Positions 1,461 to 58,120 of a stretch of DNA of 64,000 nt are shown here, piece after piece. The notes under the pieces were generated by a model. The model was not told the origin of the DNA and searched no databases. It saw nothing but the letters and a program-made list of their open reading frames with translations. Within the stretch, counting starts at the first letter, position 1. The number at the start of each line of letters is the position of its first letter. A program made the position numbers and the translations under genes. Origin of the DNA: Elusimicrobiota bacterium. GTDB lineage: Bacteria; Elusimicrobiota; Elusimicrobia; UBA1565; UBA9628. The stretch is from assembly GCA_026388095.1 (NCBI GenBank), contig JAPLKL010000041.1, forward strand, positions 36,016 to 100,015, written 5' to 3'.

Positions 1461-3167
1461 TCAGGCGGGCGGCGCGCCCGGGGGGACAGGAAAGGAGGCC
1501 GGGCCTGCGAGCGGCTGAGAGCCGGGCGGCAGAGGGATGGGCCTGGGCGGTTTGCCGTATTCCATGAAAATGCTTACGATCTCGTCATAATCGAGCTCGT
1601 CGCGCCGCACCAGTTCGGCCGCGAAGCGGTCCAGGATGCGCGATTCGGTCCTCAGGACTTGATCGACTTCGACCAGGCACTCATGGAGGATGCGCTGGGT
1701 CTCGATGTTGAGCTTCGCCTTGAGATGCTCGGAGAGCTGGTCTCCCCGCATGCTCTGGCCCGAGGGGATGACGGAGAAGTCCCCGATGAAGCCGTCGCCG
1801 CCCATACCCAGGCTCCAGACCATGTCGTGGGCGAGCGTCATGGCGTTGGAGAAGTCGGCGGAGACCCCGCTGGTGGTCACGCCGTAGCGGATCTTCTCGG
1901 CGGCATAGCCGCCCAAAGAGGTCTTGATATGGCCCAGAATCCGGTTGCGGTCGGAGAGATGGAGCTCCTCGCGCGGGATATGGTGCACCACGCCCAGACT
2001 GCCCGCCCGCTGGATGATCGAGGCCTTGAACACATCGTCCGTGGGATGCAGGAGGTAGAGCACCATCAGGTGGCCGGCCTCGTGGTAGGCCACCATCTCC
2101 CGCTCCCGCGGCGACATGGTCAGGCGGTGGGCCACGCCGAGCTCGATGCGCTCGAGGGCAGTGGAGATATCCTTGTAGTTGATGAGCTCCCGCCGGTCGC
2201 GCAGGGCCACCAAGGCGCCCTCCTTGAGGATGTTCTCGATCTCGGCCGGGGTCTTGAAGACCGCCTTGCGCGCCAGCCGCCCCAGATCCACGGCCGGGTC
2301 GAGATGGACCTTCTTGGCGTAATAGGCGAAGATCTCTTCACGCTCCTGCAGGTTCGGCCGCCCGATGGCGATGGTGCGGTCGAAGCGGCCGGGCCGCATC
2401 AGGGCGGGGTCGAGGACCTCCTCCCGCGCGTTCATGGCGCCGAGGACCACGATGTGGCTCTCGTCGTCGGTGAGGCCGTCCATCTCCACGAGGAGCTGGT
2501 TGAGGGTGCTGTTGGACTCGGAGGAGCCGCCGAAGGCGTCCAGGAACGTGCGCTGCTTGCCCACGACCTCGAGCTCGTCTATGAAGATGAGGCAGGCGCC
2601 GTAAGCCTGGGCGTACTGCCGGGCCTGCTTGAAGAGCTTGCGCACGCGCGAGGCCCCCACGCCCACGAAGACCTCCACGAACTCCGAGCCGGCGGTGGAG
2701 AGGAACGGCACGCCGGCCTCGGTGGCGATGGCCTTGGCCAGCATGGTCTTGCCGCAGCCCGGGGGCCCGACCATGAGCATGCCGTGCAGGATCTTGCCGC
2801 CCACGCGCTTCAAGGCCGCGCGGTCCTTGATGAGCTGGACCATCTCCCAGGCCTCGCGCTTGGCCTCGATGAGGCCGATGACGTCCGTAAAGCGCACCTT
2901 GACCTGGGAGGCGTCGACCTTGGACTTCTTGAGCTGGGCGAAGCCTCCGCCGTACTGCAAGAGATACAGGAAGCCCACGAAGACCAAGGTCTGCAGGATG
3001 CCCCAGGGCAAAGAGGCCACGTTGATGCCCACGATATAGCGCCGGACGCTCTCCTCCATGCCGGACATGTACCAGACCGGGATGATGATGGCCACGATGA
3101 AGCCGACCACGATGGCGACCACCAGCCAGTTGCGCTGCATGAAAAGGCGGATCTTGGCCCAGAGCAT
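1461..3167 (-). CDS. ftsH: ATP-dependent zinc metalloprotease FtsH (AAA+ domain plus M41 peptidase domain).
   Basis: There are two N-terminal TM helices, a Walker A motif (GPPGCGKT), a Walker B motif (IFIDELE), a second region of homology, and the HEAGH zinc-binding motif. The start is MLWAKIRLFMQ at 3167. Confidence 0.9.
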   Translation of the reverse strand: MLWAKIRLFMQRNWLVVAIVVGFIVAIIIPVWYMSGMEESVRRYIVGINVASLPWGILQTLVFVGFLYLLQYGGGFAQLKKSKVDASQVKVRFTDVIGLIEAKREAWEMVQLIKDRAALKRVGGKILHGMLMVGPPGCGKTMLAKAIATEAGVPFLSTAGSEFVEVFVGVGASRVRKLFKQARQYAQAYGACLIFIDELEVVGKQRTFLDAFGGSSESNSTLNQLLVEMDGLTDDESHIVVLGAMNAREEVLDPALMRPGRFDRTIAIGRPNLQEREEIFAYYAKKVHLDPAVDLGRLARKAVFKTPAEIENILKEGALVALRDRRELINYKDISTALERIELGVAHRLTMSPREREMVAYHEAGHLMVLYLLHPTDDVFKASIIQRAGSLGVVHHIPREELHLSDRNRILGHIKTSLGGYAAEKIRYGVTTSGVSADFSNAMTLAHDMVWSLGMGGDGFIGDFSVIPSGQSMRGDQLSEHLKAKLNIETQRILHECLVEVDQVLRTESRILDRFAAELVRRDELDYDEIVSIFMEYGKPPRPIPLPPGSQPLAGPASFPVPPGAPPA

Positions 3168-4997: not shown

Positions 4998-5987
4998 CTA
5001 GACGACCAGGAACTTGGCGGTCTCTTCGGTGTTGAAGCTGACCTGGGACGCCGCGAAGTCGATGGAGGTCGCGATGTGCTGCTGGAGCATCCCGTCCCTG
5101 CACCGGTTGATGCGCAGCTGGAAGGTCGTGGAGTAGAGCTCCCCGCGCACGCTCTCCACCTCGGCCCAAAGGCCCCGGTCGCCCCAGGGCTTGAGGGTCT
5201 CCGCCATGCCGGCCCGGTAGGCGGCGTAGTCCTCATCGTTCATGCGCCCGGTGGTGGCCATGTTGAAGACCAGCAGGCCCACGTCCTCGTCCGGCGGGAT
5301 GTTCTTGGCGATGAAGCGGGGGGCGTGCTCCGCCGGGCAGGCCACCAGCTGGAGGAAGCTGGCGTCCCGGGAGACCAGGTCCAGGACCACGTCTGCGGCC
5401 TGGTCCATCTCCTCGATGGCGCGCATGTTGTCCGGCGGCACGGCCGCGGTCAGCCAGCGCCTGTGGCTGATGTCCGAGAGCAGGAGCGGCTCAGGGTCCA
5501 GCCCGATGCGAGCCGCCACCAGGTCCGAGGCGAAGTTCTTCTCCGGCCGGACCATGTCCGCACAGAGGTCCAGGCCGGCGCCTGCGTTGACCTCAACCAG
5601 GTAGTACGGCAGCTTGCGGAAGCGCTGGAAGAACAGCAGGGCCGGGACCTTCCAGAGCCCGGTCCGCGCCGCCACGTAGGAGCGGCGGTGCCCGAGGCGC
5701 AGGCGGTGGTAGAACGAGTCCGGCGCGGCTGCCAGGAAACGGTCCAAGGCCGGAGCCGGGTCCGCCTCGGGAGTGCCGCCGCAGGAGGGGAAGTAGCGCA
5801 CCAGCGGGCAGTCCTCGTCGCTCAAAGCCTCGTAGTGCACCGCGCTCAGGAAGAGCTGCCAATCCTCGGTCCAGGCCACGAAGTTGCGCTTCTCCCAGGC
5901 CTTGAGGACCTTGGCCAGCCAAGGCGGGTCCCGCTTGACCGCCTCGGCCAGGTGGCGCACCATGGCGCCGGTCACGGGCAGCTTCAT
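4998..5987 (-). CDS. Hypothetical cytoplasmic protein, possibly with a SAM-methyltransferase-like fold or DUF2332-like; this assignment is weak.
   Basis: The protein has ordinary amino-acid composition from MKLPVTGAMVRHLAEAVKRD onward and contains LVEVNAGAGLDL, which resembles a Rossmann-type motif. The N-terminal ~190 aa of the track ORF are Arg/Gly-rich junk. Alternative TTG starts exist upstream as far as ~6040. Confidence 0.5.
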   Translation of the reverse strand: MKLPVTGAMVRHLAEAVKRDPPWLAKVLKAWEKRNFVAWTEDWQLFLSAVHYEALSDEDCPLVRYFPSCGGTPEADPAPALDRFLAAAPDSFYHRLRLGHRRSYVAARTGLWKVPALLFFQRFRKLPYYLVEVNAGAGLDLCADMVRPEKNFASDLVAARIGLDPEPLLLSDISHRRWLTAAVPPDNMRAIEEMDQAADVVLDLVSRDASFLQLVACPAEHAPRFIAKNIPPDEDVGLLVFNMATTGRMNDEDYAAYRAGMAETLKPWGDRGLWAEVESVRGELYSTTFQLRINRCRDGMLQQHIATSIDFAASQVSFNTEETAKFLVV

Positions 5988-34777: not shown

Positions 34778-36361
34778 ATGGGAACAGAGCCGATGCCAAC
34801 GACGACGACCTTGAATCAGGTCGACCCTGGCCCTGACGATCGGGTCCCCCTCGGACCTCGCCGCCTCATGCTCGCGCTGGTCCTGGCCGCCGGAGCCCTC
34901 GCCTGGGGCCTGATGATCCTGCATCGCGGCTACACCTATGATGAGGTCCTGCGGACCCACTCGGTCTGGATGACGTCGCAAGGCCTGCGGCCGTACCACG
35001 ACTTCTTCGAGTGCCATCCGCCCTACTTCGCGCTTCTGGCCCCGCTGGCGCGGGGCCTCAAGGACCCCGCCGCGCTGCTCGTCGCGCTGAGGCTGGTCGC
35101 GCTGGCGGGAAATCTCCTGTTCCTCGCCGGCCTCGCGGCCGCGCTGGCCGGGCCCCCGGGGGTGCTCGCCGCGATCCTGGGGACGGCGCTGGTCGCCTTC
35201 CACCCCGCGGTGCTCGCATTCCTCGCAGAGTTCCGGATCGACGGATGGGGGTACGCGCTGGCCATCTGGAGCATCGTGTGGTTCCTGCGTTCGCGCCGAT
35301 CCTGGCGTGGCGCGGGGCTCGGCGCCGGGACCGGGATCGCGACCCTATTTCTCTGCCCAAAGGTCGCGCTGCTGCCGCCGCTGGTCCTCGCGTTCGAACG
35401 ACTCCGGGCGCGCAGCTCCTGGAGAGACGCGCTATGGGCTGGCGCGACGTACGGAATCGGCATCGCCGCCGCCGGAGGGCTCTTTTGGGTCTGGCTGGCG
35501 GCGAACAGGCTCGGCGCCGGCCAGGTCTTCGCCCTTCTCGTAAGCTACAACTCGCTGAGCAACTTCCATTCGTCCTACGGCCACGGGCTGTGGCGGGAGA
35601 TAGGGGGGTGGCCGACGCTGGGCGTGCCGATCCTGGCCGCCGCCGCGGCCGGCGCGGTCAGCTGCATCCGCGCCAGGACGCTGCCCGCCGCCTATCCGGC
35701 GGCTCTGGCTCTTTGGCTCGCCGCGCAAGCCGCGCTGGTCTCCTTCCCCCACGCGCAGTACTACGGGCCATGGTTCCTCTTCGCCTCGGGCCTCTTCCCC
35801 TTCCTCTATCCTTGGCTGAAGACCTTCCCGGGACGCGCGGCAGCCAGGATGTTCTTCGGGGTGTGCGCTCTGTCGGTAGCGGTGTCCCTCGTCAACGCGC
35901 CCTGGATGGACTCGCGTGAGTCTCGGGATGACGGGGCCATCCGCCGGACCATCAACGAGGTCACGGACCCAGACGACTATATCGTGGCGATGCCGCCATT
36001 CCATCCCATCGACCGCCGTGACACGTTCTTTGCATGGTTCGACACTTTCGACCCGGCCGGGCACGAGACCGAGGAGATCCTGCAAGGGCTGCCGCTGGTC
36101 CGCGGCCTGGTGTCCGAGCAACGGTACCGTGATGAACTGCAGGCGCATCCTCCCGCGCTCGTCGTCCTTTGGTCCGACTCCGCAGGCCGCAAGTATCCTC
36201 GCCGCCAGCAAGCGTTGCTCGAGCAGTTCCTTCAGGAACGCAGATATGTCGTCTTCGAGATCGGCGACGTGCCGGTCGCGGTGCGTCCGGACCGTTTCGA
36301 GCGCTTAGCCCGCCTGCGCCCGCAACTGCTGTATTTGGGCAATTTCCGGCCCCGCGGTTAG
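34778..36361 (+). CDS. GT-C-family membrane glycosyltransferase-like protein (ArnT/PMT-like N-terminal motif).
   Basis: The N-terminal loop motif YTYDEVLRTHSVWMTSQGLRPYHDFFECHPPYFALLAPL resembles the catalytic loop 1 of GT39/GT83 enzymes (DE/YDE...HPP). About 10 TMs follow, and the C-terminus is a soluble domain. It is a paralog of the 56561-58120 gene. Confidence 0.6.
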   Translation: MGTEPMPTTTTLNQVDPGPDDRVPLGPRRLMLALVLAAGALAWGLMILHRGYTYDEVLRTHSVWMTSQGLRPYHDFFECHPPYFALLAPLARGLKDPAALLVALRLVALAGNLLFLAGLAAALAGPPGVLAAILGTALVAFHPAVLAFLAEFRIDGWGYALAIWSIVWFLRSRRSWRGAGLGAGTGIATLFLCPKVALLPPLVLAFERLRARSSWRDALWAGATYGIGIAAAGGLFWVWLAANRLGAGQVFALLVSYNSLSNFHSSYGHGLWREIGGWPTLGVPILAAAAAGAVSCIRARTLPAAYPAALALWLAAQAALVSFPHAQYYGPWFLFASGLFPFLYPWLKTFPGRAAARMFFGVCALSVAVSLVNAPWMDSRESRDDGAIRRTINEVTDPDDYIVAMPPFHPIDRRDTFFAWFDTFDPAGHETEEILQGLPLVRGLVSEQRYRDELQAHPPALVVLWSDSAGRKYPRRQQALLEQFLQERRYVVFEIGDVPVAVRPDRFERLARLRPQLLYLGNFRPRG

Positions 36362-37347
36362 CCGCCCCAATTCTCGAAGCCGAGCCCAGGGTCGCAGCGC
36401 AAAGACCGGCCCACGCGGCGTCTGCGCAGCCGGTGGCTGGCCGCCTGGGCGAGCATGGCCCCGTTATCCGTGCACAGGATCGGCGGCGGGATGCTCACGC
36501 GCAGGCCGCGGCTTGCGGCCGCCTCTGCGAAAGCCTCGCGCAGCCGGGCGTTGGCCGCGACCCCGCCTCCCACCACCACCTGCTTGACCCGGTGGCTCAG
36601 CGCGGCGGCGACGGTCTTCCTGACCAAGGTCTCCACCACAGCCTCCTGGAAGGAGGCGCACAGGTCGGCGGTCTCCTTGCGCGTGGGCTTGCGCTCGAGG
36701 TCCCGCAGGTGGTAGAGCATGGCCGTCTTGATCCCAGCGAAGGAGAAATCCCAAGTCCCGGGCAGGAGCGGCCGGGCGAAAGCCACGGCTTGCGGGTCGC
36801 CTCGACGCGCCAGCCGGTCGATCGCGGGCCCGCCCGGGTAGCCCAGGCCCAGCATGCGCGCCACCTTGTCGTAAGCCTCTCCCGCGGCGTCGTCGCGCGT
36901 GCGGCCCAGGACGCGGTAGCGGCCCGGGGCCCGGCACAGGAGGAGGTCCGTGTGCCCGCCCGAGACGATGAGCGTGACCAGCGGGAAGCGGATCCGGCCG
37001 CTGAGCTCGGCCGCGAAGACATGCCCTTCGAGGTGGTTCACCGCCACGACCGGGCAGCCCAGGGTCTCAGCCGCGGCCAGAGCCGCCATCTTCCCGACCA
37101 AAAGCGGCCCCATGAGCCCCGGACCGCGGGCGAAGGCTACGGCATCCACCTTCCGCCCCGCCAAGGCGGTCTCCACCACCTCGCCGATGCGCTGCAGGTG
37201 CGCGCGCGCTGCCAGCTCCGGCACCACGCCGTGGAAGCGCCGGTGCAGGCGTATCTGGGACGAGACGACATTGGAGAGGATATGGCCGTCCTCGACCACG
37301 GCGGCGGCCGTCTCGTCGCAGGAGGTCTCGATGCCCAGGACTCTCAT
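36358..37347 (-). CDS. tsaD: tRNA N6-adenosine threonylcarbamoyltransferase TsaD (Kae1/YgjD family).
   Basis: The N-terminus MRVLGIETSCDETAAAVV is canonical. The metal-binding motif region (HLEGH) and the C-terminus (GGGVAANARLRE...PPPILCTDNGAM) are present. Confidence 0.9.
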   Translation of the reverse strand: MRVLGIETSCDETAAAVVEDGHILSNVVSSQIRLHRRFHGVVPELAARAHLQRIGEVVETALAGRKVDAVAFARGPGLMGPLLVGKMAALAAAETLGCPVVAVNHLEGHVFAAELSGRIRFPLVTLIVSGGHTDLLLCRAPGRYRVLGRTRDDAAGEAYDKVARMLGLGYPGGPAIDRLARRGDPQAVAFARPLLPGTWDFSFAGIKTAMLYHLRDLERKPTRKETADLCASFQEAVVETLVRKTVAAALSHRVKQVVVGGGVAANARLREAFAEAAASRGLRVSIPPPILCTDNGAMLAQAASHRLRRRRVGRSLRCDPGLGFENWGG

Positions 37348-37356
37348 ATGAGTTCG

Positions 37357-37421
37357 GGGACACAATACTTAATTCCCGTCCTACTGCGCATAGGTATCCC
37401 TTGAATTAAGTATTGTGTCCC
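37357..37421. other. Perfect 19-bp inverted repeat (GGGACACAATACTTAATTC ... GAATTAAGTATTGTGTCCC) with a 27-nt loop, lying between the ctpA stop and the tsaD start.
   Basis: The arms are at 37357-37375 and 37403-37421. It is AT-rich within GC-rich DNA. It begins 7 nt after the ctpA stop and ends 9 nt before the tsaD ATG on the transcribed (minus) strand. There is no U-tract, so it is not a classical intrinsic terminator. It is either an RNA structure or a protein-binding palindrome. Confidence 0.6.
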
Positions 37422-37427
37422 TCAATT

Positions 37428-38816
37428 CTATTTCTCCTTGCCTTTGAGACGCCCCAGCACATCCCCAGACTTGACGATGGCCGCGGCGCGGTCCAGGACC
37501 TCGTCGCGCACGGTCTCGTCCTTCTTGACCGCGGAACGAGGCTTCTTGCCCGGCTCGTAGATCATCTCCCACTGGGAGAAGATCTTCTCCTCCACGTCGC
37601 GGGCGACCGGGACCACGATGTCCGGCGTGATGCCGCCCGTCTTCTTCTTCTCGTCGCGGTGGATCGAGCGGCCGTTGGGCGTGTAGTAGCGCGCGATGGT
37701 CAGTCGCAAGCCGCAGTTGTTCGGCAGGGGGATGACGGACTGCACGCTCGCCTTGCCGTAGGTGCGCTCACCCATGAGCAGGGCGCGGCGATGGTCCTGC
37801 AGGGCTCCGGCGATGATCTCGGAGCCGGAAGCGGAGGCTTCGTTGACCAGGACCACCAAAGGCAGGTCCTGGTACGGCGCCTGGGTCCCGCCGCGGAATT
37901 CCTGATGGCTGTCGGGACGCCGGCCCTGGGTGTAGACGATGAGCTTCCCGTCGCCCAGGAAACTCGCGGCCACATCCACCGCCGAGGCCAGCAGCCCCCC
38001 CGGATTGAAGCGCAGGTCCAGGATGAGGCCGGCGAGCCCATCCTTGGATAGGGCGCGCAGGGCGGCGCGGAAATCATCCGTGGTGCGGGCGCTGAACTCG
38101 GAGATGCGCACATAACCGACCTGGCCGTCGAGCTTGCGGTATTGGACGCTCTCGATCTTGATGTTCTCGCGAGTGAGCCAGAACTCCTTCTCGACCCCGT
38201 CCTCATCGGAGGGCGCCTGGACGACCGTCCCGGAACTGGCCTTGGTCCCGGAGCCGGCGGCGGACTCGGGCCAGCGCATGACGGTGAGCTTGACCTTGGA
38301 GCCCGGCGCGCCGCGCAATTTCTCCATGGCGTCGGCCACTTGGAGCTCCTTGGTGCTCTCGCCGTCGATCTCGATGATGCGGTCGTTGGGCAGGATGCCC
38401 GCGCGGAAGGCCGGGGTGCCGGGCAGAGGAGTCAGAACGGCGAGCCAGTCATCCTTCACGATCATGCGGATGCCGATTCCGCCGAAGGCGCCTTCGGTCT
38501 CCGCCTTGATCTCGCGATGCGCCTGCGGCTCCATGAATTGGGAGAATGGGTCGAGCGCGCGGACCATGCCCGCGGCCGCGCCGTAGACGAGCTTCTGAGT
38601 GTCGGTCGGGTCGACGTAGTTCTCCTGGATGTAGTTGATGACGTCTACAAGGAAGGAGAGTTGCTCGTAGGTCTTGTCGTCGCCCTCCGGGCGGGCCGGG
38701 GCAGAGGCTTTCTTGGGGTCGGCGGCGACCGCCGGCCCGGCCGGGCCCCCCCAGGCCGACGCTCCGAGAGCAGCCAACGACAGGCCGATGAGAGCCAGAC
38801 GCAGAGTGATCCTCAT
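37428..38816 (-). CDS. ctpA: Carboxyl-terminal processing (tail-specific) peptidase, S41 family, with a PDZ domain.
   Basis: The signal peptide is MRITLRLALIGLSLAALGASAWG. A PDZ domain is present (GIGIRMIVKDDWLAVLTPLPGTPAFRAGILPNDRIIEIDG). The S41 catalytic region includes LILDLRFNPGG, the conserved Ser in GASASGSEI, and a Lys in the TYGKAS region. Confidence 0.9.
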   Translation of the reverse strand: MRITLRLALIGLSLAALGASAWGGPAGPAVAADPKKASAPARPEGDDKTYEQLSFLVDVINYIQENYVDPTDTQKLVYGAAAGMVRALDPFSQFMEPQAHREIKAETEGAFGGIGIRMIVKDDWLAVLTPLPGTPAFRAGILPNDRIIEIDGESTKELQVADAMEKLRGAPGSKVKLTVMRWPESAAGSGTKASSGTVVQAPSDEDGVEKEFWLTRENIKIESVQYRKLDGQVGYVRISEFSARTTDDFRAALRALSKDGLAGLILDLRFNPGGLLASAVDVAASFLGDGKLIVYTQGRRPDSHQEFRGGTQAPYQDLPLVVLVNEASASGSEIIAGALQDHRRALLMGERTYGKASVQSVIPLPNNCGLRLTIARYYTPNGRSIHRDEKKKTGGITPDIVVPVARDVEEKIFSQWEMIYEPGKKPRSAVKKDETVRDEVLDRAAAIVKSGDVLGRLKGKEK

Positions 38817-38826
38817 GAGCGATCTC

Positions 38827-39960
38827 CTATGATTTCTTCTGGAGCCAGGACATGGGGTCCAGGGCCTCGGTCCCGCGACGCAGTTCCAGATAGACCACGC
38901 CCTTGCCCGCCTCCCCGCCGGCCGTGCCGACGGCCTCGCCGACTTCGACCGGCGCGCCCTTGGCTTTCTGGATGTCGCCCAGTTCGCCGTAGATGCTGAA
39001 GAACCCGCCGCCATGGTCGACGATGACCACTTTGCCGTAGGACCGGAAGGGCCCGGAGTAGATCACCCGGCCGGCTCCGACCGCGCCCACGGGGGCCCCG
39101 GGCTTCGTCGCGAAGGTGACTCCCTGGCGGATGACCCAGGTGTTGAGTTCCGCATTGCGCTGCCGGCCGAAAGGCCGCGCCACGGTGCCGTCCACCGGCC
39201 AGGGCAGGGAATTGCGGGGCAGCTCCAGGCGGGTGGGGCCCTGCCGGTCATAGCGCTTGGCCGCGCCGAGGCGGGAGAGCAGCTCGGTCAGGGCGCGCTT
39301 GGTCTCCTCGAGCTCCCGGGCGCGCTTCTCGGCCGCCTGCACCTGGCCCCGAGCCGCGGCCACGGCCGCCTGCTTGCGTCCGTACTCCTCCCGGACTTGA
39401 GCGGCCTCCGCCTCGGCCCGGCGGCTACGGCCCCGGAGCTCCACCGCCGAGTGCCGCGCGGCTTCGACGGCGGCCTCGGTCTTGTGGCGGTAGCCCAGGA
39501 GACTGGAGACGATGCGGGCCTTGTCCAGGAGCACCGCGCGACGGAAGGCCTCGGCCCACAGGTCCGCGCCCCCCCAGGCCTCCTCACGGGCGGCCAAGGC
39601 CACGACGTAAGCGCGCAGCTCGCGGTCTCGCGCCGCCGTCCAGAATCCCGAAGCGAGGTTCAGGGCGCCGAGGTGCGATCTGAGCCCCACCCGCCTCTGC
39701 TCGGCTTCGTGGATGTTCCTCCGGATGCCGCCGATGCGGCGGCGGGTGTCCGCGTCGTGGCTCTCCAGCTTATGCAGGTCGCGGTTGAGCGCAGATTCCT
39801 GGCGGCGATACTCATCCAGGTCGGATTTCACCTTCTCATACTCCTTCTGGATGCGGATGAGGTCCCGACGCTTCTCTTCCAGCTGGCCCGACGCGACGCC
39901 CGGGAAAGTCCAGAGCAAGGCCGCGGCCAGGCCCAGGCGCGCCAGAACGATGCGGTCCAT
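38827..39960 (-). CDS. envC: EnvC-like murein hydrolase activator (coiled coil plus degenerate M23/LytM domain).
   Basis: The signal peptide is MDRIVLARLGLAAALLWTFPGVASG. A long coiled coil follows. The C-terminal LytM domain (VIVDHGGGFFSIYGELG) lacks the second HxH metal-binding motif, as in the non-catalytic EnvC. Confidence 0.75.
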   Translation of the reverse strand: MDRIVLARLGLAAALLWTFPGVASGQLEEKRRDLIRIQKEYEKVKSDLDEYRRQESALNRDLHKLESHDADTRRRIGGIRRNIHEAEQRRVGLRSHLGALNLASGFWTAARDRELRAYVVALAAREEAWGGADLWAEAFRRAVLLDKARIVSSLLGYRHKTEAAVEAARHSAVELRGRSRRAEAEAAQVREEYGRKQAAVAAARGQVQAAEKRARELEETKRALTELLSRLGAAKRYDRQGPTRLELPRNSLPWPVDGTVARPFGRQRNAELNTWVIRQGVTFATKPGAPVGAVGAGRVIYSGPFRSYGKVVIVDHGGGFFSIYGELGDIQKAKGAPVEVGEAVGTAGGEAGKGVVYLELRRGTEALDPMSWLQKKS

Positions 39961-45834: not shown

Positions 45835-46537
45835 CGACGCGGACCTCCTTTTTGTAGACCATGATGGGGCCGAGATTCCCCTCTTGGCGCACGAAGACCT
45901 TCTCCATCTTGACGAGTTCGAGCATGGCCAGGAAGCAGGCGAGTATGCCCCGCCGCTTGCGCTCGTCGGAGAAGATCTCCACCCAGCTGAGCGCGGGCCG
46001 GCTCTCGAGGAGGAACATGATCTTGGCCATCTTCTCCTCGATGGGGAACTCCTCGCCGACCACCTCGCGGGTCTCATGCTTGGCGCGCTCGAGGATCTCG
46101 CGGAGGCTGCCGAGCAGGTCGAAGAGGTTCAGGTCCAGATTCTTCTGCGACTCGTCGAAAGTGGGCACGCCCCGGTAGAAGACGTCCTTGAACTCGTCGG
46201 CGCGCTTCTCCAGGAACTTGGCCGCCTCCTTGAACTTCTGGTACTCCAGGAGCTTGGCCTTGAGCTCGGCGGTCGGATCCGGGCCGGTCTCCTCCTCCTC
46301 GCCGGGATGGCTGGGCAGGAGGGCCCGCGCCTTGATGCCGATCAAGGTCGCGGCCATGACCAGGAACTCGCCGGCCAAGTCGAGGTTGAGTTCCTTCATC
46401 AGGTCGATATAGGCCAGGTACTCGTGCGTGATGTGGGCAAGGGGGATGTTGTTGATGTCGAGGTCGTCCCGCTTGACCAGGAACAGGAGCAGGTCGAGCG
46501 GCCCCTCGAACATCTCCAGATGGACTTGGTGGCTCAT
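45800..46537 (-). CDS. scpA: Segregation and condensation protein A (kleisin).
   Basis: The N-terminus MSHQVHLEMFEGPLDLLLFLVKRDDLDINNIPLAHITHEYLAYI is the canonical ScpA N-terminus. The gene overlaps the scpB start by 35 nt. Confidence 0.85.
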   Translation of the reverse strand: MSHQVHLEMFEGPLDLLLFLVKRDDLDINNIPLAHITHEYLAYIDLMKELNLDLAGEFLVMAATLIGIKARALLPSHPGEEEETGPDPTAELKAKLLEYQKFKEAAKFLEKRADEFKDVFYRGVPTFDESQKNLDLNLFDLLGSLREILERAKHETREVVGEEFPIEEKMAKIMFLLESRPALSWVEIFSDERKRRGILACFLAMLELVKMEKVFVRQEGNLGPIMVYKKEVRVDVPDASIAPAG

Positions 46538-47607
46538 CTCAGCCTCATGGCGCGGCGGACCTGCTCCAAAGTGGACTTGGCGACGGCCGAGGCTTTGCGG
46601 GCGCCCTCGGCCAGTATCTCGTCGACTTTCTCGGGCTTGGCGGCGTAGCCTTCCCGGGCCTTGCGGAACTCGGCGAAGGGGCCGTCCAGGGACTGAAGCA
46701 GGCTCTTCTTGTCGGCCACGCAGCCCAAGCGGCCGGCGCGGCATTCCTCGCCAATCTTCTCCCAGTCCTGGGTGTAGAGCTTGTGCAGAGCGTAGACCGC
46801 GCAGCCGGGAGGGTTCTCGGGGCAAGGATCGGGATGGCCGGGAGTGTCCTTGCGGAGCTTCTGCGGGTCCGTGTACATGGACATGACCTTGGCTTTGAGC
46901 GAGTCCGCGGTCTCGTAGATGTTCACGGCGTTGCCGTAGGACTTGGACATCTTGCGGCCGTCGCAGCCAGGGACCTTGGGAGTCTGGGTCAGCAAGGGCT
47001 GGGGCTCGGAGAGCACGGGACCGTAGATGTGGTTGAATTTGCGCGCGATCTCGCGGGAGAGCTCGACATGCGGGAGTTGGTCCTGGCCGACCGGCACGCG
47101 ACCGCCCTTGTAGAGCAGGATGTCCGCGGCCTGCAGGACCGGATAGCCCAAGAAACCGAAGGTGCGGATCTCGGACTTGGCGGCCGCCTCGCCCTCAGAC
47201 GCCTTGTGGTCCTCCCCGTCGGCCGCCTTGCTCAGCTTGGTCTTGGACAGCTCCTGGAGCTGTTCCTTCCATGTGGGATTATTCTCCAGCCAGGACAACG
47301 GGGTCACCATGCCGAGCAGGACCGCGAGCTCCGCGTGCTCGGACACGTCGGACTGCTTGAAGATGACGCATTTGGCGGGATCGAGGCCGGCGGCCAGCCA
47401 ATCGAGCACCATCTCGCGAATATTATCTTGAAGGGCCGAGGTGTCCGAGTAGCCAGTGGTGAGCATGTGCCAGTCCGCCACGAAGAAGTAGCAGTCGTAG
47501 CGGTCTTGCAGGGAGACCCAGTTCTTGAGCGCGCCCCAAGAGTGGCCGATGTGCAGACGGCCGGTGGGCCGCATCCCGGAGACCACGACTTCCCGGCGGT
47601 CTGGCAT
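46534..47607 (-). CDS. trpS: Tryptophan--tRNA ligase.
   Basis: The HIGH-region variant (PTGRLHIGH), the KMSKS motif and an overall class I TrpRS layout are present. The start is MPDRREVVVSGMRPTG. Confidence 0.9.
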   Translation of the reverse strand: MPDRREVVVSGMRPTGRLHIGHSWGALKNWVSLQDRYDCYFFVADWHMLTTGYSDTSALQDNIREMVLDWLAAGLDPAKCVIFKQSDVSEHAELAVLLGMVTPLSWLENNPTWKEQLQELSKTKLSKAADGEDHKASEGEAAAKSEIRTFGFLGYPVLQAADILLYKGGRVPVGQDQLPHVELSREIARKFNHIYGPVLSEPQPLLTQTPKVPGCDGRKMSKSYGNAVNIYETADSLKAKVMSMYTDPQKLRKDTPGHPDPCPENPPGCAVYALHKLYTQDWEKIGEECRAGRLGCVADKKSLLQSLDGPFAEFRKAREGYAAKPEKVDEILAEGARKASAVAKSTLEQVRRAMRLR

Positions 47608-47648
47608 GGGGTGTATCTTAGCGAATTGCCCAGGGGGACACAAGAAAA

Positions 47649-48056
47649 TTAAGCGCCGGGGACCATCCGGAATCCGGCTTTGGCGAAATCCTCGTCAAAA
47701 GCGAAGACCGCGTCCGCTTTGAGCTCCGCCATGAGGGCCATGGAAACGCAGTCCGTGAAGCTCAGCCTCTTGTCCTTGTATCTGCTCATGACCTGGAGCG
47801 CGGCGCGCTCCAGGTCCGCGTCCACATAAGAGATGGAGCAGAGGCGGCTCTTGAGGATGATGTCGGCGAAGGCCAGGGCCGCCTCGCAGCCGACGCAGTA
47901 GCGCAGCCTGGTGATGGTCTCGTCTACCACGTAGTTGCTGGTCAAAAGCCGGTCCGCCGAAGTCAGGGTCTCGTAGAAGCGTTTGGCCCGCGGGTGCAGG
48001 ACGTCCGAGCGGTCTTCCAGGGCGATGAAGGCGCTGGTGTCTACGAAAATCTTCAC
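47649..48056 (-). CDS. vapC: PIN-domain ribonuclease toxin (VapC family).
   Basis: The sequence MKIFVDTSAFIALED...VVDETITRL...FTDCVSMA carries the conserved PIN acidic residues. It overlaps the upstream antitoxin gene by 4 nt. Confidence 0.85.
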   Translation of the reverse strand: MKIFVDTSAFIALEDRSDVLHPRAKRFYETLTSADRLLTSNYVVDETITRLRYCVGCEAALAFADIILKSRLCSISYVDADLERAALQVMSRYKDKRLSFTDCVSMALMAELKADAVFAFDEDFAKAGFRMVPGA

Positions 48057-48307
48057 GCGGCGTCGCCGTAGATGTCCCGGTCATGGCGCACGGCGCCGTC
48101 GGTCAGGCCGCTCTCGCATGCGCCGATCAGCCGTTGGAAGGGGTCCTTTTTGGGGTCCACGGTCTTTTCATCGCACCCGATGTGGTAGGCCAATTCAATG
48201 GCGTCGCGGACCAGCTGGGCCAGGCTCTTGCGCTCCTTGGCGGCCCTGATCTTTAGCGCCTCCAAAGTCTTCTCAGGAAGGCGGATGTTAGTGGCTGTGT
48301 ATTTCAC
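48053..48307 (-). CDS. vapB: Antitoxin of the VapBC pair (ribbon-helix-helix, CopG-like).
   Basis: The sequence MKYTATNIRLPEKTLEALKIRAAKERKSLAQLVRDAIE is an RHH fold (β-strand, helix, helix). The start codon is a GTG at 48307. Confidence 0.7.
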   Translation of the reverse strand: MKYTATNIRLPEKTLEALKIRAAKERKSLAQLVRDAIELAYHIGCDEKTVDPKKDPFQRLIGACESGLTDGAVRHDRDIYGDAA

Positions 48308-55479: not shown

Positions 55480-56487
55480 CTACAATTGGACAAAGGTCCC
55501 AGGCGTTGATAGGCCTTTGGGCCCAGGAGCCCGCGAGCACAAAATCGAGGCCTGGTCGATGAACCCCAAGGACTTGGGCGAGAGGGTCTTGAGCGCGAGG
55601 TCTTCACGGAGCTGCATGAGGCTGCTGGCGCCCACGACCGCGGCGGCGATGCCGGGCCGGGAGAGCACCCAAGACAGGGCCGCGGCCGAAGGCGTCGTCG
55701 CCTCCTGCTTGGCCACGGTGATGAGCACCCGGACCACGCCGCCGTATCGTTTCTCGTCCAAGGGCGGGAAGGCCTTGGACGGATCCTGCCTGCGGCCCTT
55801 GGGACGTTGGCCCGGCTCAAGATACTTGCCGGTGAGGTAGCCGCCGGCCAAGGGGCTCCAAGCGATGACCGAGACTTTCTCGGCCCCGGCCACGGGCAGG
55901 ACGTCGCCGTCGGCTGAGCGCGCCACGAGACTGTACTCCACTTGATCGCATTCGCAACGCGGCCAAGCCTTGGCCGCGGAAGCGGCCAGGGCTTGGCGCC
56001 ACTGGGCGCCGGGGAAATTCGAGCAGCCCAGGACTTTGACCTTGCCGGCCTTGACCGCGGCGGCCAAGGCTCCCAAGGTCTCCTCCAACGGCACCCTGTT
56101 GTCCGGGGCATGGGGCATGTAGATGTCCAGATAGTCGGTCTTGAGGCGCTTGAGGCTGGCGTCGAGGGCGGCTCTGATGCGCCTCTTGGAAAGGCCTCCG
56201 GAGGCGGGGTTGTCCGGATCCATCTGCCAGCGGACCTTGGTCGCCAGGAGGACTCTCTGGCGCCTCTTGCCGAGGATGCGGCCGAGCATGGTCTCGGCCG
56301 CGCCGTAGCCGTAGATGTCCGCGGTGTCGATGAGGTTGACGCCGGAGTCGAGCGCGAAGTCGAGCAGGCTGCGCGCGGTCTTCTCATCTACGGGGGTGGA
56401 GCCCATCCAGTCCGAGCCCCAGCCCATGGTGCCCAAGGCCAGCACGCCGATTTCAAGACCCGAGCTGCCTAAAGCCCGCTTCTCCAT
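55480..56487 (-). CDS. Aldo/keto reductase family oxidoreductase.
   Basis: The N-terminus MEKRALGSSGLEIGVLALGTMGWG and motifs such as LIDTADIYGYGAAETMLG and YLDIYMPHAPD, together with the AKR (α/β)8 pattern, support the call. Confidence 0.85.
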   Translation of the reverse strand: MEKRALGSSGLEIGVLALGTMGWGSDWMGSTPVDEKTARSLLDFALDSGVNLIDTADIYGYGAAETMLGRILGKRRQRVLLATKVRWQMDPDNPASGGLSKRRIRAALDASLKRLKTDYLDIYMPHAPDNRVPLEETLGALAAAVKAGKVKVLGCSNFPGAQWRQALAASAAKAWPRCECDQVEYSLVARSADGDVLPVAGAEKVSVIAWSPLAGGYLTGKYLEPGQRPKGRRQDPSKAFPPLDEKRYGGVVRVLITVAKQEATTPSAAALSWVLSRPGIAAAVVGASSLMQLREDLALKTLSPKSLGFIDQASILCSRAPGPKGLSTPGTFVQL

Positions 56488-56560
56488 GCCCAAATCTTAT
56501 ATCTTTTTGGACTCCGAATTAAGTATGGTGTCCCCGCATTCTTTTCTACAATATGGCCGG

Positions 56561-58120
56561 ATGAAAAAGCAGGACTGGCTAGCCCTGGCCGCCGTCCTCC
56601 TCCTGGGCCTGGGCCTGCGCGCTCCCATCGCGGGCATCTTCCTGGAGCGCGACGAGGGCGAATACGCCTACATCGCCCAACGCTGGCTCAAAGGCGAAGT
56701 CCCCTACCGGGACAGCTTCGACCAGAAGCCCCCGGGCGTCTTCGCCGCCTACGCCGCCATCGAGCGCCTGTCCAGCGGGAGTCCGGCGGCCATCCACTGG
56801 GGCGCGCAGCTCTACACGCTCCTGACCCTCTGCCTGGTCTTCCTCATCGGCCGCCGCCTCTTCGGCCCGGAGGCCGGCTGCGCGGCCGGAGCCTTGGCCG
56901 CCTTCATGACCGTGGACCACAGTCTCCTGGGCAACGCGGCCCACTGCGAACTCTTCATGCTCCTGCCTCTGGCCGCCGCTTTCCTGGCCGCGCTGCTGGC
57001 CGCGGAGCGCGACTCCTGGCGCTGGGCCCTGGTCAGCGGAGCCTGCGCGGGCGCAAGCCTGCTCTTCAAGCAGGTCGCCGCGACCGATGCCGCTTTCTAC
57101 CTGGTCTTCCTGCTCTGCGCCCCCCGCATCAGCCGCAAGGTCCTCACGGCCGCGGCCTTCGCCGCGGGAGCGGTCGCGGTCTGGATCCCGGTGGCGCTCT
57201 ACTTCGCGGCGACGGGCGCCTGGGCCCCGTTCTACGACTGCGTGCTGGGCTACAACCTCTCCTACGCCGGAGGCATCCCGCTCTCCGATTACGTAAGGAA
57301 CTTCTGGACCACCTTCTCGCGGACTCTCCCCGGCCTCCTGCCGATCTACCTCCTGGCCCTGGCCGGCGCCATCTGGCAGGCCGGGCCCGCGGCGCCCTGG
57401 GTCATCGGCTGGCTGGCCTGCTCTTTGCTGGGCGTCTGCGCCGGCGGCTTCTTCCGGGCGCACTACTACCAGCAGGCCGTCCCGGCCCTGGCCGTCCTGG
57501 CCGGCTCCGCGCTCTCGGGCTTGTCCCAGCGCTGGCGCCTGCCGCGTCCGGCGCCCTACGCGGCCGCGGCCGCGGTGCTCCTCTTCGGCGTGCTCAGCGC
57601 CGCATGGTACTATGGGCCGGGCTCGGCCGTGGTGAAATGCCGACGGCTCTACCAGGACAACCCCTTCCCCGAAGCCACGGGCGTGGCGCACGTCATCGAC
57701 GAGCGCACCACGGAACAGGACCGCATCTTCGTCTTCGGCTCCGAGCCGGAGATTCTCTACTATGCCAGCCGAAAGAGCGCCACGCGCTATATCTTCCTTT
57801 ATCCCCTCTTCCTGGCTTCCCCGGACGCGGCCGCGCGCCAGCAGGAGGTGCTCGCCGAGGTGCGCAGCGTCAAGCCCAAGACCATCGTCACGGTCTTCGT
57901 GCGCAAATCCTTCCTGCCGTCCAGCGCCTCTCCGCTGGAGATATTCGGGGAGGTCAAGAGCCTTCTGAAGGACTATCACATCCAGGCCGTGGTGCTGTCC
58001 AATCCCAAGAACCCGACCGAACTGTTCGTGGACCAGGCGGCGCGGAAGCTTTGGCAGAAGTACCCCATGTGGTACGACCGGCCGTTCTGGGGGACCTTGG
58101 CGGTCTGGGAACGCGACTGA
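56561..58120 (+). CDS. GT-C-family glycosyltransferase (ArnT/PMT-like, PMT_2-type).
   Basis: The N-terminus is MKKQDWLALAAVLLLGLGL. The extracytoplasmic catalytic loop ERDEGEYAYIAQRWLKGEVPYRDSFDQKPPG matches the GT39/GT83 DE-motif loop. About 11 TMs follow, and then a C-terminal soluble domain. Confidence 0.75.
   Translation: MKKQDWLALAAVLLLGLGLRAPIAGIFLERDEGEYAYIAQRWLKGEVPYRDSFDQKPPGVFAAYAAIERLSSGSPAAIHWGAQLYTLLTLCLVFLIGRRLFGPEAGCAAGALAAFMTVDHSLLGNAAHCELFMLLPLAAAFLAALLAAERDSWRWALVSGACAGASLLFKQVAATDAAFYLVFLLCAPRISRKVLTAAAFAAGAVAVWIPVALYFAATGAWAPFYDCVLGYNLSYAGGIPLSDYVRNFWTTFSRTLPGLLPIYLLALAGAIWQAGPAAPWVIGWLACSLLGVCAGGFFRAHYYQQAVPALAVLAGSALSGLSQRWRLPRPAPYAAAAAVLLFGVLSAAWYYGPGSAVVKCRRLYQDNPFPEATGVAHVIDERTTEQDRIFVFGSEPEILYYASRKSATRYIFLYPLFLASPDAAARQQEVLAEVRSVKPKTIVTVFVRKSFLPSSASPLEIFGEVKSLLKDYHIQAVVLSNPKNPTELFVDQAARKLWQKYPMWYDRPFWGTLAVWERD

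Follow-up and report, generated by a model that had tools for sequence, protein, structure and literature searches.

Several described bacterial systems pair a Y1 transposase gene with inverted repeats. TnpAY1 proteins of subclass 2.1, described as the second-largest subclass, are about 238 aa long with the motifs NHVH and YIELNP and a C-terminal helix-turn-helix (HTH)-like domain, and that account treats them as identical to what Bertels et al. call RAYT Group 1 and to the TIRYTs that Di Nocera et al. described in 2013 (Quentin et al. 2018, PMC6006769). TIRtrons are described as Y1 genes placed between long terminal inverted repeats (TIRs) that share GGGGWSAS, and some genomes have TIR copies that stand singly, as dimers or in groups (Di Nocera, De Gregorio & Rocco 2013, PMC3733652). 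RAYT Group 1 is reported to have the widest distribution (21 classes), with flanking 16-mers that are only moderately abundant (Bertels et al. 2017, PMC5581495). The DNA analyzed here is a stretch of 64,000 nucleotides from an Elusimicrobiota bacterium (assembly GCA_026388095.1, contig JAPLKL010000041.1, positions 36,016 to 100,015 of the forward strand), referred to below as the window, in which a long hairpin fills the space between ctpA and tsaD. The hairpin is very probably a non-autonomous TIR doublet of a Y1 family of the TIRYT type, inserted between the two genes, and a further copy at 56516 a solo arm of that family. Understood in this way, it is a genomic parasite or passenger of a known, little-studied kind and not a dedicated regulator of tsaD.

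Hairpin and solo arm in the window

The spacer between the stop codon of the ctpA-like gene (37428-37430, minus strand) and the tsaD ATG (37347-37345) was entirely occupied by an inverted repeat with perfect arms of 19-20 nt (37356-37375 and 37403-37421/22) and a gap of 27 nt. A preliminary description of this DNA, made from its letters, had reported the same structure as a perfect 19-bp repeat with a 27-nt loop filling the spacer, ending 9 nt before tsaD; the tsaD-side arm was measured to end 8-9 nt from the ATG, and the other arm overlapped the ctpA stop codon by 1-2 nt. Pairing extended imperfectly to 26 nt at 88% (37350-37375 with 37403-37428), for a whole region of 37350-37428. Folding of the transcribed strand, which the preliminary description had proposed as a check, predicted a strong RNA hairpin (-39.5 kcal/mol, z -6.0), and the DNA strand was predicted to fold at -18.8 kcal/mol (z -7.6). 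The stem is AT-rich, and GAACUCAUAUG lies downstream of it on the transcribed strand.

The arm recurred at 56516-56535 with one mismatch, 25 nt ahead of the ATG of a PMT_2/GT-C gene, a recurrence that had also been noted from the letters. Three arm matches were present in the window versus none expected (100 shuffles). When a position-weight matrix (PWM) for the TIR unit, built from 357 copies, was run over the window, the three real copies scored 38-40 bits and the next-best site 5 bits, inside the shuffle null (Table 1). The solo copy is located in a 73-nt divergent spacer between an aldo/keto reductase (AKR) gene and the PMT_2 glycosyltransferase gene. No intrinsic (Rho-independent) terminator was called at the hairpin or at the 56516 site, and the hairpin is not such a terminator because it has no U-tract. 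A scan for sigma-70-like promoters predicted none at either site, and Rfam 15 gave no match at the gathering threshold in the whole window. The gene labels of the preliminary description were borne out by Pfam (S41/PDZ peptidase, TsaD, PMT_2, PIN/vapC and Trp/Tyr-tRNA synthetase).

Table 1. Repeat copies and neighboring features in the window. Positions count from the first letter of the window; PWM scores are in bits.
Feature	Position	Strand	Remarks
Arm 1 of doublet, TIR copy	37350..37375	-	Core GGGGACACAATACTTAATTC 37356-37375, outer tail 37350-37355; PWM 37.7
Spacer (hairpin loop), 27 nt	37376..37402	.	Not conserved: spacer of relative L120 is unrelated, 86 nt
Arm 2 of doublet, TIR copy	37403..37429	+	Core GAATTAAGTATTGTGTCCC(T) 37403-37422, tail CAATTCT; PWM 40.4
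ctpA-like C-terminal processing peptidase, S41 + PDZ	37428..39014	-	Pfam; upstream gene on the transcribed strand
tsaD	36358..37347	-	Pfam; ATG 37347 backed by homologous start MRVLGIETSC in relatives
Aldo/keto reductase gene	55480..56487	-	
Flank on aldo/keto reductase side	56488..56514		AAAAAGATATAAGAT, ahead of aldo/keto reductase ATG
Solo TIR copy	56515..56542	+	GAATTAAGTATGGTGTCCCC plus tail GCATTCT; PWM 38.2
Flank on PMT_2 side	56543..56560		TTCTTTTCTACAAT, 8 nt ahead of PMT_2 ATG
PMT_2 glycosyltransferase gene	56561..58120	+	
Trp/Tyr-tRNA synthetase gene	46534..47607		
PIN gene of vapBC-type pair	47649..48056	-	
Ribbon-helix-helix antitoxin gene of vapBC-type pair	48053..48307	-	

A repeat family flanking Y1 transposase genes

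A scan for GAATTAAGTATNGTGTCCC across 185,579 species-representative genomes gave exact matches at at least 120 loci in about 100 assemblies and at least 12 phyla, at local GC contents of 33-71% and mostly as tail-out doublets. The number expected by chance is ~17 (18 specified bases, 596 Gb, uniform base composition assumed). Among the matches listed, positions outside the search pattern were conserved too (C at +19 in 86%, AATT at +22 to +25 in 66-91%), and the copies are therefore homologous, not coincidental. The listed matches came from, among others, Planctomycetota, Omnitrophota, Desulfobacterota, Nitrospirota, Nitrospinota, Acidobacteriota (including Aminicenantes), Elusimicrobiota, Actinomycetota, Bacillota, Bacteroidota and WOR-3, as well as from Alpha- and Gammaproteobacteria, and adjoined unrelated genes across phyla. 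The arm core GAATTAAGTATNGTGTCCCC is followed by nnAAYT, and the consensus unit is GAATTAAGTAT-N-GTGTCCCC-nn-AAYT(c), with nothing conserved beyond its GAATT side; the full TIR of ~28 nt consists of the core and an 8-nt lineage-specific tail, nnAAYTnn. The repeats are multi-copy, with one doublet and one solo copy in the 64 kb of the window, doublets and clusters at many loci, and copies on at least two contigs of the related metagenome-assembled genome (MAG) JACRDS01. Only one exact match (L214:7560-7578) was obtained from the 2.9 million viral contigs of IMG/VR, and the repeat is therefore not phage-borne. Coding constraint on the motif was rejected, since only one of six third-codon positions varies.

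When the open reading frames (ORFs) of the motif loci were clustered, one recurrent neighbor emerged. An ORF of ~220 aa adjoined the motif at 10 of the at least 120 loci listed, with its stop codon inside GAATTAAG (…AAT TAA G…) and a motif copy in inverted orientation at its 5' flank, so that the gene-carrying unit reads GGGGACAC..TTAATTC, gene, GAATTAAG..GTGTCCCC. The protein matched Pfam Y1_Tnp (IS200-like) with an E-value of 3e-16 and the NCBIfam REP-associated tyrosine transposase model with 75 bits (cutoff 80), and its nearest solved structure was that of E. coli TnpA_REP (4ER8). In the alignment, whose proteins are 216-233 aa long, the HUH (NHVH) and Y (YVELNP) motifs were invariant (N59-H60-V61-H62, Y119, E121, N123, P124). 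A Pfam search of the C-terminal part gave no HTH match, and its HTH character rests on PMC6006769.

The association was also recovered in the reverse direction. Eighty metagenome loci were collected by protein similarity alone from an alignment of seven of the ~220-aa proteins, and a flank was scored as matching with at most 4 mismatches in 19. The motif was found in '-' orientation upstream in 37/80 loci, typically 36 nt ahead of the start, and in '+' orientation downstream in 34/80, 3-40 nt past the end of the protein match; 24 loci had it on both flanks (chance expectation ~4e-4 per flank). Homologues below ~50% identity carried graded TIR variants, for example AATTAAGTGCACTGTCACCGTAATT, which argues that the repeat co-evolves with the protein.

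These genes share with TIRtrons and TIRYTs a Y1/HUH gene of ~220-240 aa with NHVH, YxELNP and a C-terminal extension, long non-palindromic TIRs that fit GGGGWSAS, extra TIR copies as singles, dimers and groups, and a downstream TIR that overlaps the 3' end of the gene. In the window the outer TIR end GGGGACAC (37356-37363, and its complement at 56528-56535) fits GGGGWSAS as well. The overlap of stop codon and downstream TIR can be seen at L023:1967-1990, L109:5215-5235, L039:6985-7014 and L047:885-916, and the distance from the end of the upstream TIR to the start codon stays close to 36 nt; signals for expression of the TIRYT gene probably reside in the TIRs. A distant TIRYT homologue (L169:2440-2500 and 3075-3125) had a 48-nt perfectly palindromic TIR, TAGGGACAGTCACCTGACTGTCCCCGGGACAGTCAGGTGACTGTCCCC, which is a fused doublet serving as each end.

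The arrangement of the copies was followed in neighbors at most 150 nt apart among the matches listed. Fifty-eight such pairs were '-+' (tail-out, as in the window hairpin), 2 were '+-' and 25 were tandem. The 58 doublets had spacers of 2-110 nt, most often 35-36 nt, and the sole variable core position was identical in both arms of 53 of them, which suggests that a doublet is copied as one unit or that its pairing is selected. [quoted passage not shown]

The outer tail was re-duplicated outward as nested 5'-truncated pieces in 36/240 copies, versus 4/240 for the inner-side control. The pieces share one boundary ~8 nt beyond CCCC, as in …GTGTCCCCGAATTACC / CTCCCCGAATTACC / CCCGAATTACC / CCGAATTACC, and suggest copying of a one-ended or rolling-circle type, in which the nick would be fixed and the second junction would vary. 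Such re-duplications were seen at L023:2713-2830, L024 (minus strand, about 2050-2200), L105:3997-4070, L006:7350-7420, L025:7861-7900 and ~30 more loci, a further example being …CCCCGAATTACC / CTCCCCGAATTACC / CCCGAATTACC / CCGAATTACC.

Integron attC sites, CRISPR repeats and dif/Xer sites were also considered, because the hairpins are intergenic and because tandem copies recur at regular intervals in L001 and L072. They were rejected: attC boxes (RYYYAAC/GTTRRRY) were absent, copies flank the Y1 gene, and the tandem units of L001 and L072 consist of a duplicated transposase 3' end plus the TIR.

Compared with REPINs and their repetitive extragenic palindromic (REP) units (Nunvar 2010; Bertels & Rainey 2011; 4ER8), the doublet likewise consists of two inverted short repeats that form a hairpin, is intergenic and non-autonomous, is linked to a usually single-copy Y1 transposase flanked by the same repeats, and persists at orthologous sites; it probably works as REPINs do. 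Unlike canonical REP/REPIN elements (RAYT Groups 2 and 3), each arm is non-palindromic and lacks the 5' GT[AG]G tag: the arm GAATTAAGTATNGTGTCCCC has neither a GT[AG]G foot nor an internal stem, and the sole possible pairing, between GAATT and the AATTC tail, does not hold in genomes whose tails differ. The associated protein also falls just below the NCBIfam cutoff for REP transposases and belongs to a different subclass, and whereas REP sequences are lineage-specific, the TIR core here is common to many phyla. Like DDE-derived MITEs, the doublet is short, non-coding and intergenic and has at its ends the terminal inverted repeats of an autonomous element. It differs from them in its parent gene, whose product is a Y1/HUH enzyme instead of a DDE transposase, and in having no regular short target-site duplication: the insert in the related MAG L120 has a ~19-nt duplication of the tsaD 5' end, the window insert none.

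A literature search for 14-mers of the motif found no published description of the TIR sequence, although sequences printed only in figures are unsearchable. Set beside the main points of the published TIRYT accounts, leads that go further are the near-invariant 20-nt core across at least 12 phyla with proteins diverged to ~50% identity, the excess of tail-out pairs (58:2), the agreement of the two arms at the variable position and the nested, truncated re-duplications at the outer boundary. To our knowledge, RAYT Group 1 (subclass 2.1), which is the RAYT group with the most members and the broadest distribution, has no experimentally known substrate, and the conserved 28-nt TIR, with a probable nick ~8 nt outside its GGGG end, is a candidate. 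The REPIN-like non-autonomous form and the natural filled and empty sites make biochemical tests of TIRYT enzymes straightforward to design.

The ctpA-tsaD junction in relatives

The junction was compared in relatives, with percentages giving the identity of TsaD to the window protein. The repeat was absent from L204 and L205 (88%), where ctpA and tsaD abut (TGAgATG), from L206 (81%), where they overlap by 4 nt (ATGA), and from L210 (88%), where they overlap at TTGA. In the contig that carries P0006 (89%), for which gene calls but no DNA were returned, the called genes overlap by 4 nt. In the syntenic MAG L120 (88%), a duplicated 5' end of tsaD flanked a doublet whose 86-nt spacer is unrelated to that of the window. 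In L207 (93%) a tsaD 5' remnant was followed by an inserted gene for a 610-aa membrane protein and by a solo arm 9 nt before the ATG; L203 (89%) had the remnant and a homologous gene for 636 aa with no arm, and L209 (90%) had a different upstream gene and no repeat. Because close Elusimicrobia relatives have abutting or overlapping ctpA and tsaD and no hairpin, the hairpin is an insertion. Judged by these comparisons, the junction is a polymorphic insertion site whose ancestral state was two translationally coupled genes.

Arm sequences change more slowly than synonymous sites do: 36/39 arm positions were identical in the window and L120, compared with 60% of the 4-fold degenerate sites of tsaD (P about 8e-6), and the variable position changed on both arms together (A/T versus C/G). 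Selection, homogenisation and re-insertion are possible causes of this conservation.

At the second site, the position of the solo copy was kept in L211 and L212 (AKR proteins 84% and 83% identical to that of the window), and L213 (AKR 78%) had a doublet with a 13-nt spacer there. L213 and L205 belong to the same genome, which is empty at ctpA-tsaD. Conservation of the TTCTTTTCTACAAT and AAAAAGATATAAGAT flanks of the solo TIR extended to L211-L213 or L211-L212. These flanks likely represent the two core promoters of the divergent spacer, and the solo TIR therefore would lie between or over their -35 regions.

In L120, the direct duplication of the tsaD 5' end around the doublet (L120:5789-5810 and 5958-5980, ATGCGGGTCCTGGGCATCG … ATGAAGATCCTGGGGATCG) measures ~19 nt, much more than target-site duplications usually do; in L203 and L207, too, ctpA is followed by this tsaD 5' remnant. 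The multi-pass membrane-protein gene of 610-636 aa (L207:4069-5901, L203:90-2000), which had no Pfam match, stands where the window has the hairpin, and in L207 it is preceded by a GGGGGCACC stretch and followed by the solo TIR arm. It may have been inserted into a doublet or carried between TIRs. The contig of L208 (TsaD 92%; L208:1-3) stops 2 nt short of the tsaD start, as would fit a break in the assembly at a junction repeat.

Competing explanations

Under the favored reading, a TIRYT encoded elsewhere in the genome would mobilise the doublet in trans. As an HUH/Y1 enzyme it would probably act on single-stranded DNA, with the doublet folded as a hairpin, and the nested re-duplications ending at one boundary hint that the nick probably lies ~8 nt outside the GGGG/CCCC end. 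The insert would separate two formerly coupled genes and place a strong hairpin 8 nt from an AUG without an obvious Shine-Dalgarno sequence. In the ctpA-tsaD mRNA the hairpin could then sequester the tsaD initiation region, as the preliminary description had supposed; the predicted fold makes this occlusion structurally plausible. More speculatively, a ribosome terminating at the ctpA stop codon, at the foot of the stem, might open the 5' arm and thereby expose the tsaD start, so that coupling would be preserved. Because the hairpin was inserted, an influence on how tsaD is translated, if there is one, would be a by-product of the insertion and not designed regulation.

Several points weigh against this reading. 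We know of no experiment on any TIRYT, and mobilisation in trans, the cleavage site and the single-stranded hairpin substrate are all inferred. With arms that have neither self-complementarity nor the GT[AG]G tag, the doublet cannot simply be assigned the REPIN mechanism. A tblastn search found no Y1_Tnp gene in the 64-kb window. Arm conservation at orthologous sites could mark a host function and not transposition competence. The account of subclass 2.1 in Quentin et al. (2018, PMC6006769) reports no REP-like sequences next to its genes.

The preliminary description had offered three readings of the motif, and only the last, a small dispersed repeat, agrees with the copies in many phyla, their place as TIRs around a Y1 transposase gene and their absence from several relatives. 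The others, a cis-regulatory operator or a promoter element for a sigma factor shared by tsaD, the GT-C gene and trpS, are in our estimation very unlikely. Copies do stand near start codons (8-9 nt before tsaD, 25 nt before PMT_2), the solo copy of the AKR/PMT_2 spacer holds the same place in three relatives beside a conserved TACAAT, and the HTH-like C-terminal domain described for TIRYTs (PMC6006769) means that the repeats could be double-stranded DNA sites for protein binding. Yet the same sequence occurs beside unrelated genes in at least 12 phyla, is missing from the ctpA-tsaD junction of several close relatives, and has an arm spacing among the matches listed that is unsuited to a dimeric operator. 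A promoter element is opposed by the negative sigma-70-like scan at both sites, and the site upstream of trpS is not a copy. Nor were the listed copies enriched in 5' regions, as had been envisaged: 46 lay in co-directional, 32 in convergent and 18 in divergent spacers. These contexts come from crude longest-ORF calls, in which 30 'intragenic' cases were mostly over-extended or spurious ORFs, and for this reason only the convergent to divergent ratio was used.

An element mobile by origin might have been co-opted by the host and kept by selection, its RNA hairpin protecting the 3' end of the ctpA mRNA, attenuating read-through or gating tsaD translation. In E. coli, REP elements make the mRNA upstream of them more stable and can alter how the upstream gene is translated, which counts in favor of such a role, as do the great stability of the predicted RNA hairpin, the stem foot that touches the ctpA stop codon and stands 8 nt from an AUG lacking an obvious Shine-Dalgarno sequence, and the conservation of the arms beyond synonymous sites with paired changes at the variable position. 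We nevertheless consider co-option improbable. The missing U-tract speaks against termination, and transposase re-insertion or homogenisation could explain the arm conservation equally well. The junction is moreover polymorphic in near relatives, where it is empty, holds a doublet with another spacer, a solo arm with the 610-aa gene, or no arm, and this therefore argues against a fixed, needed host function.

A wider reading would take the core GAATTAAGTATNGTGTCCCC as the near-universal recognition sequence of a domesticated Y1 family and the doublets as a pan-bacterial, vertically persisting population of the REPIN kind, retained by hosts through selection. It draws on the slower change of the arms than of synonymous sites, the compensatory variable position and the retention at orthologous sites, and strikes us as unlikely, if worth keeping in mind. 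Were it true, TIRYT and TIR would serve the host, for example by coupling translation, processing mRNA or taking part in DNA transactions linked to replication, and the nested re-duplications would record a one-ended, rolling-circle-like copying undescribed for RAYT-type enzymes.

That the hairpin is a chance palindrome or an artefact of MAG assembly has a negligible probability. The window does come from a MAG contig, its TsaD being 100% identical to P0001 of a 122-kb NCBI contig, and the break of L208 next to tsaD shows assembler trouble at the locus. Against this, no chance matches are expected in the window, and the same doublet architecture was found in about 100 independent assemblies, including the chromosome-level OY970194.1 and OY764159.1, and in JGI, ENA and Logan contigs; this explanation is already effectively refuted. 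With the TIR doublet as the preferred reading, a conspicuous AT-rich hairpin in GC-rich Elusimicrobia DNA is better annotated as a TIRYT-type repeat than as a regulatory site.

The preliminary description had also seen a weaker copy of the arm at 47635-47654, upstream of trpS. This candidate was rejected as a decayed copy; only GGGGACACAA is shared with the arm, and the site is absent from the PWM matches. The 10-mer GGGGACACAA lies in a 41-nt spacer upstream of the Trp/Tyr-tRNA synthetase gene and is not a TIR copy, and a vapBC-type pair of PIN and ribbon-helix-helix antitoxin genes is found directly upstream of the synthetase gene. The figure of 70% GC given for the surrounding DNA was approximately right, the window ranging from 62 to 74%, with a step from ~0.62-0.67 over 1-26000 to ~0.69-0.74 over 26001-56000.

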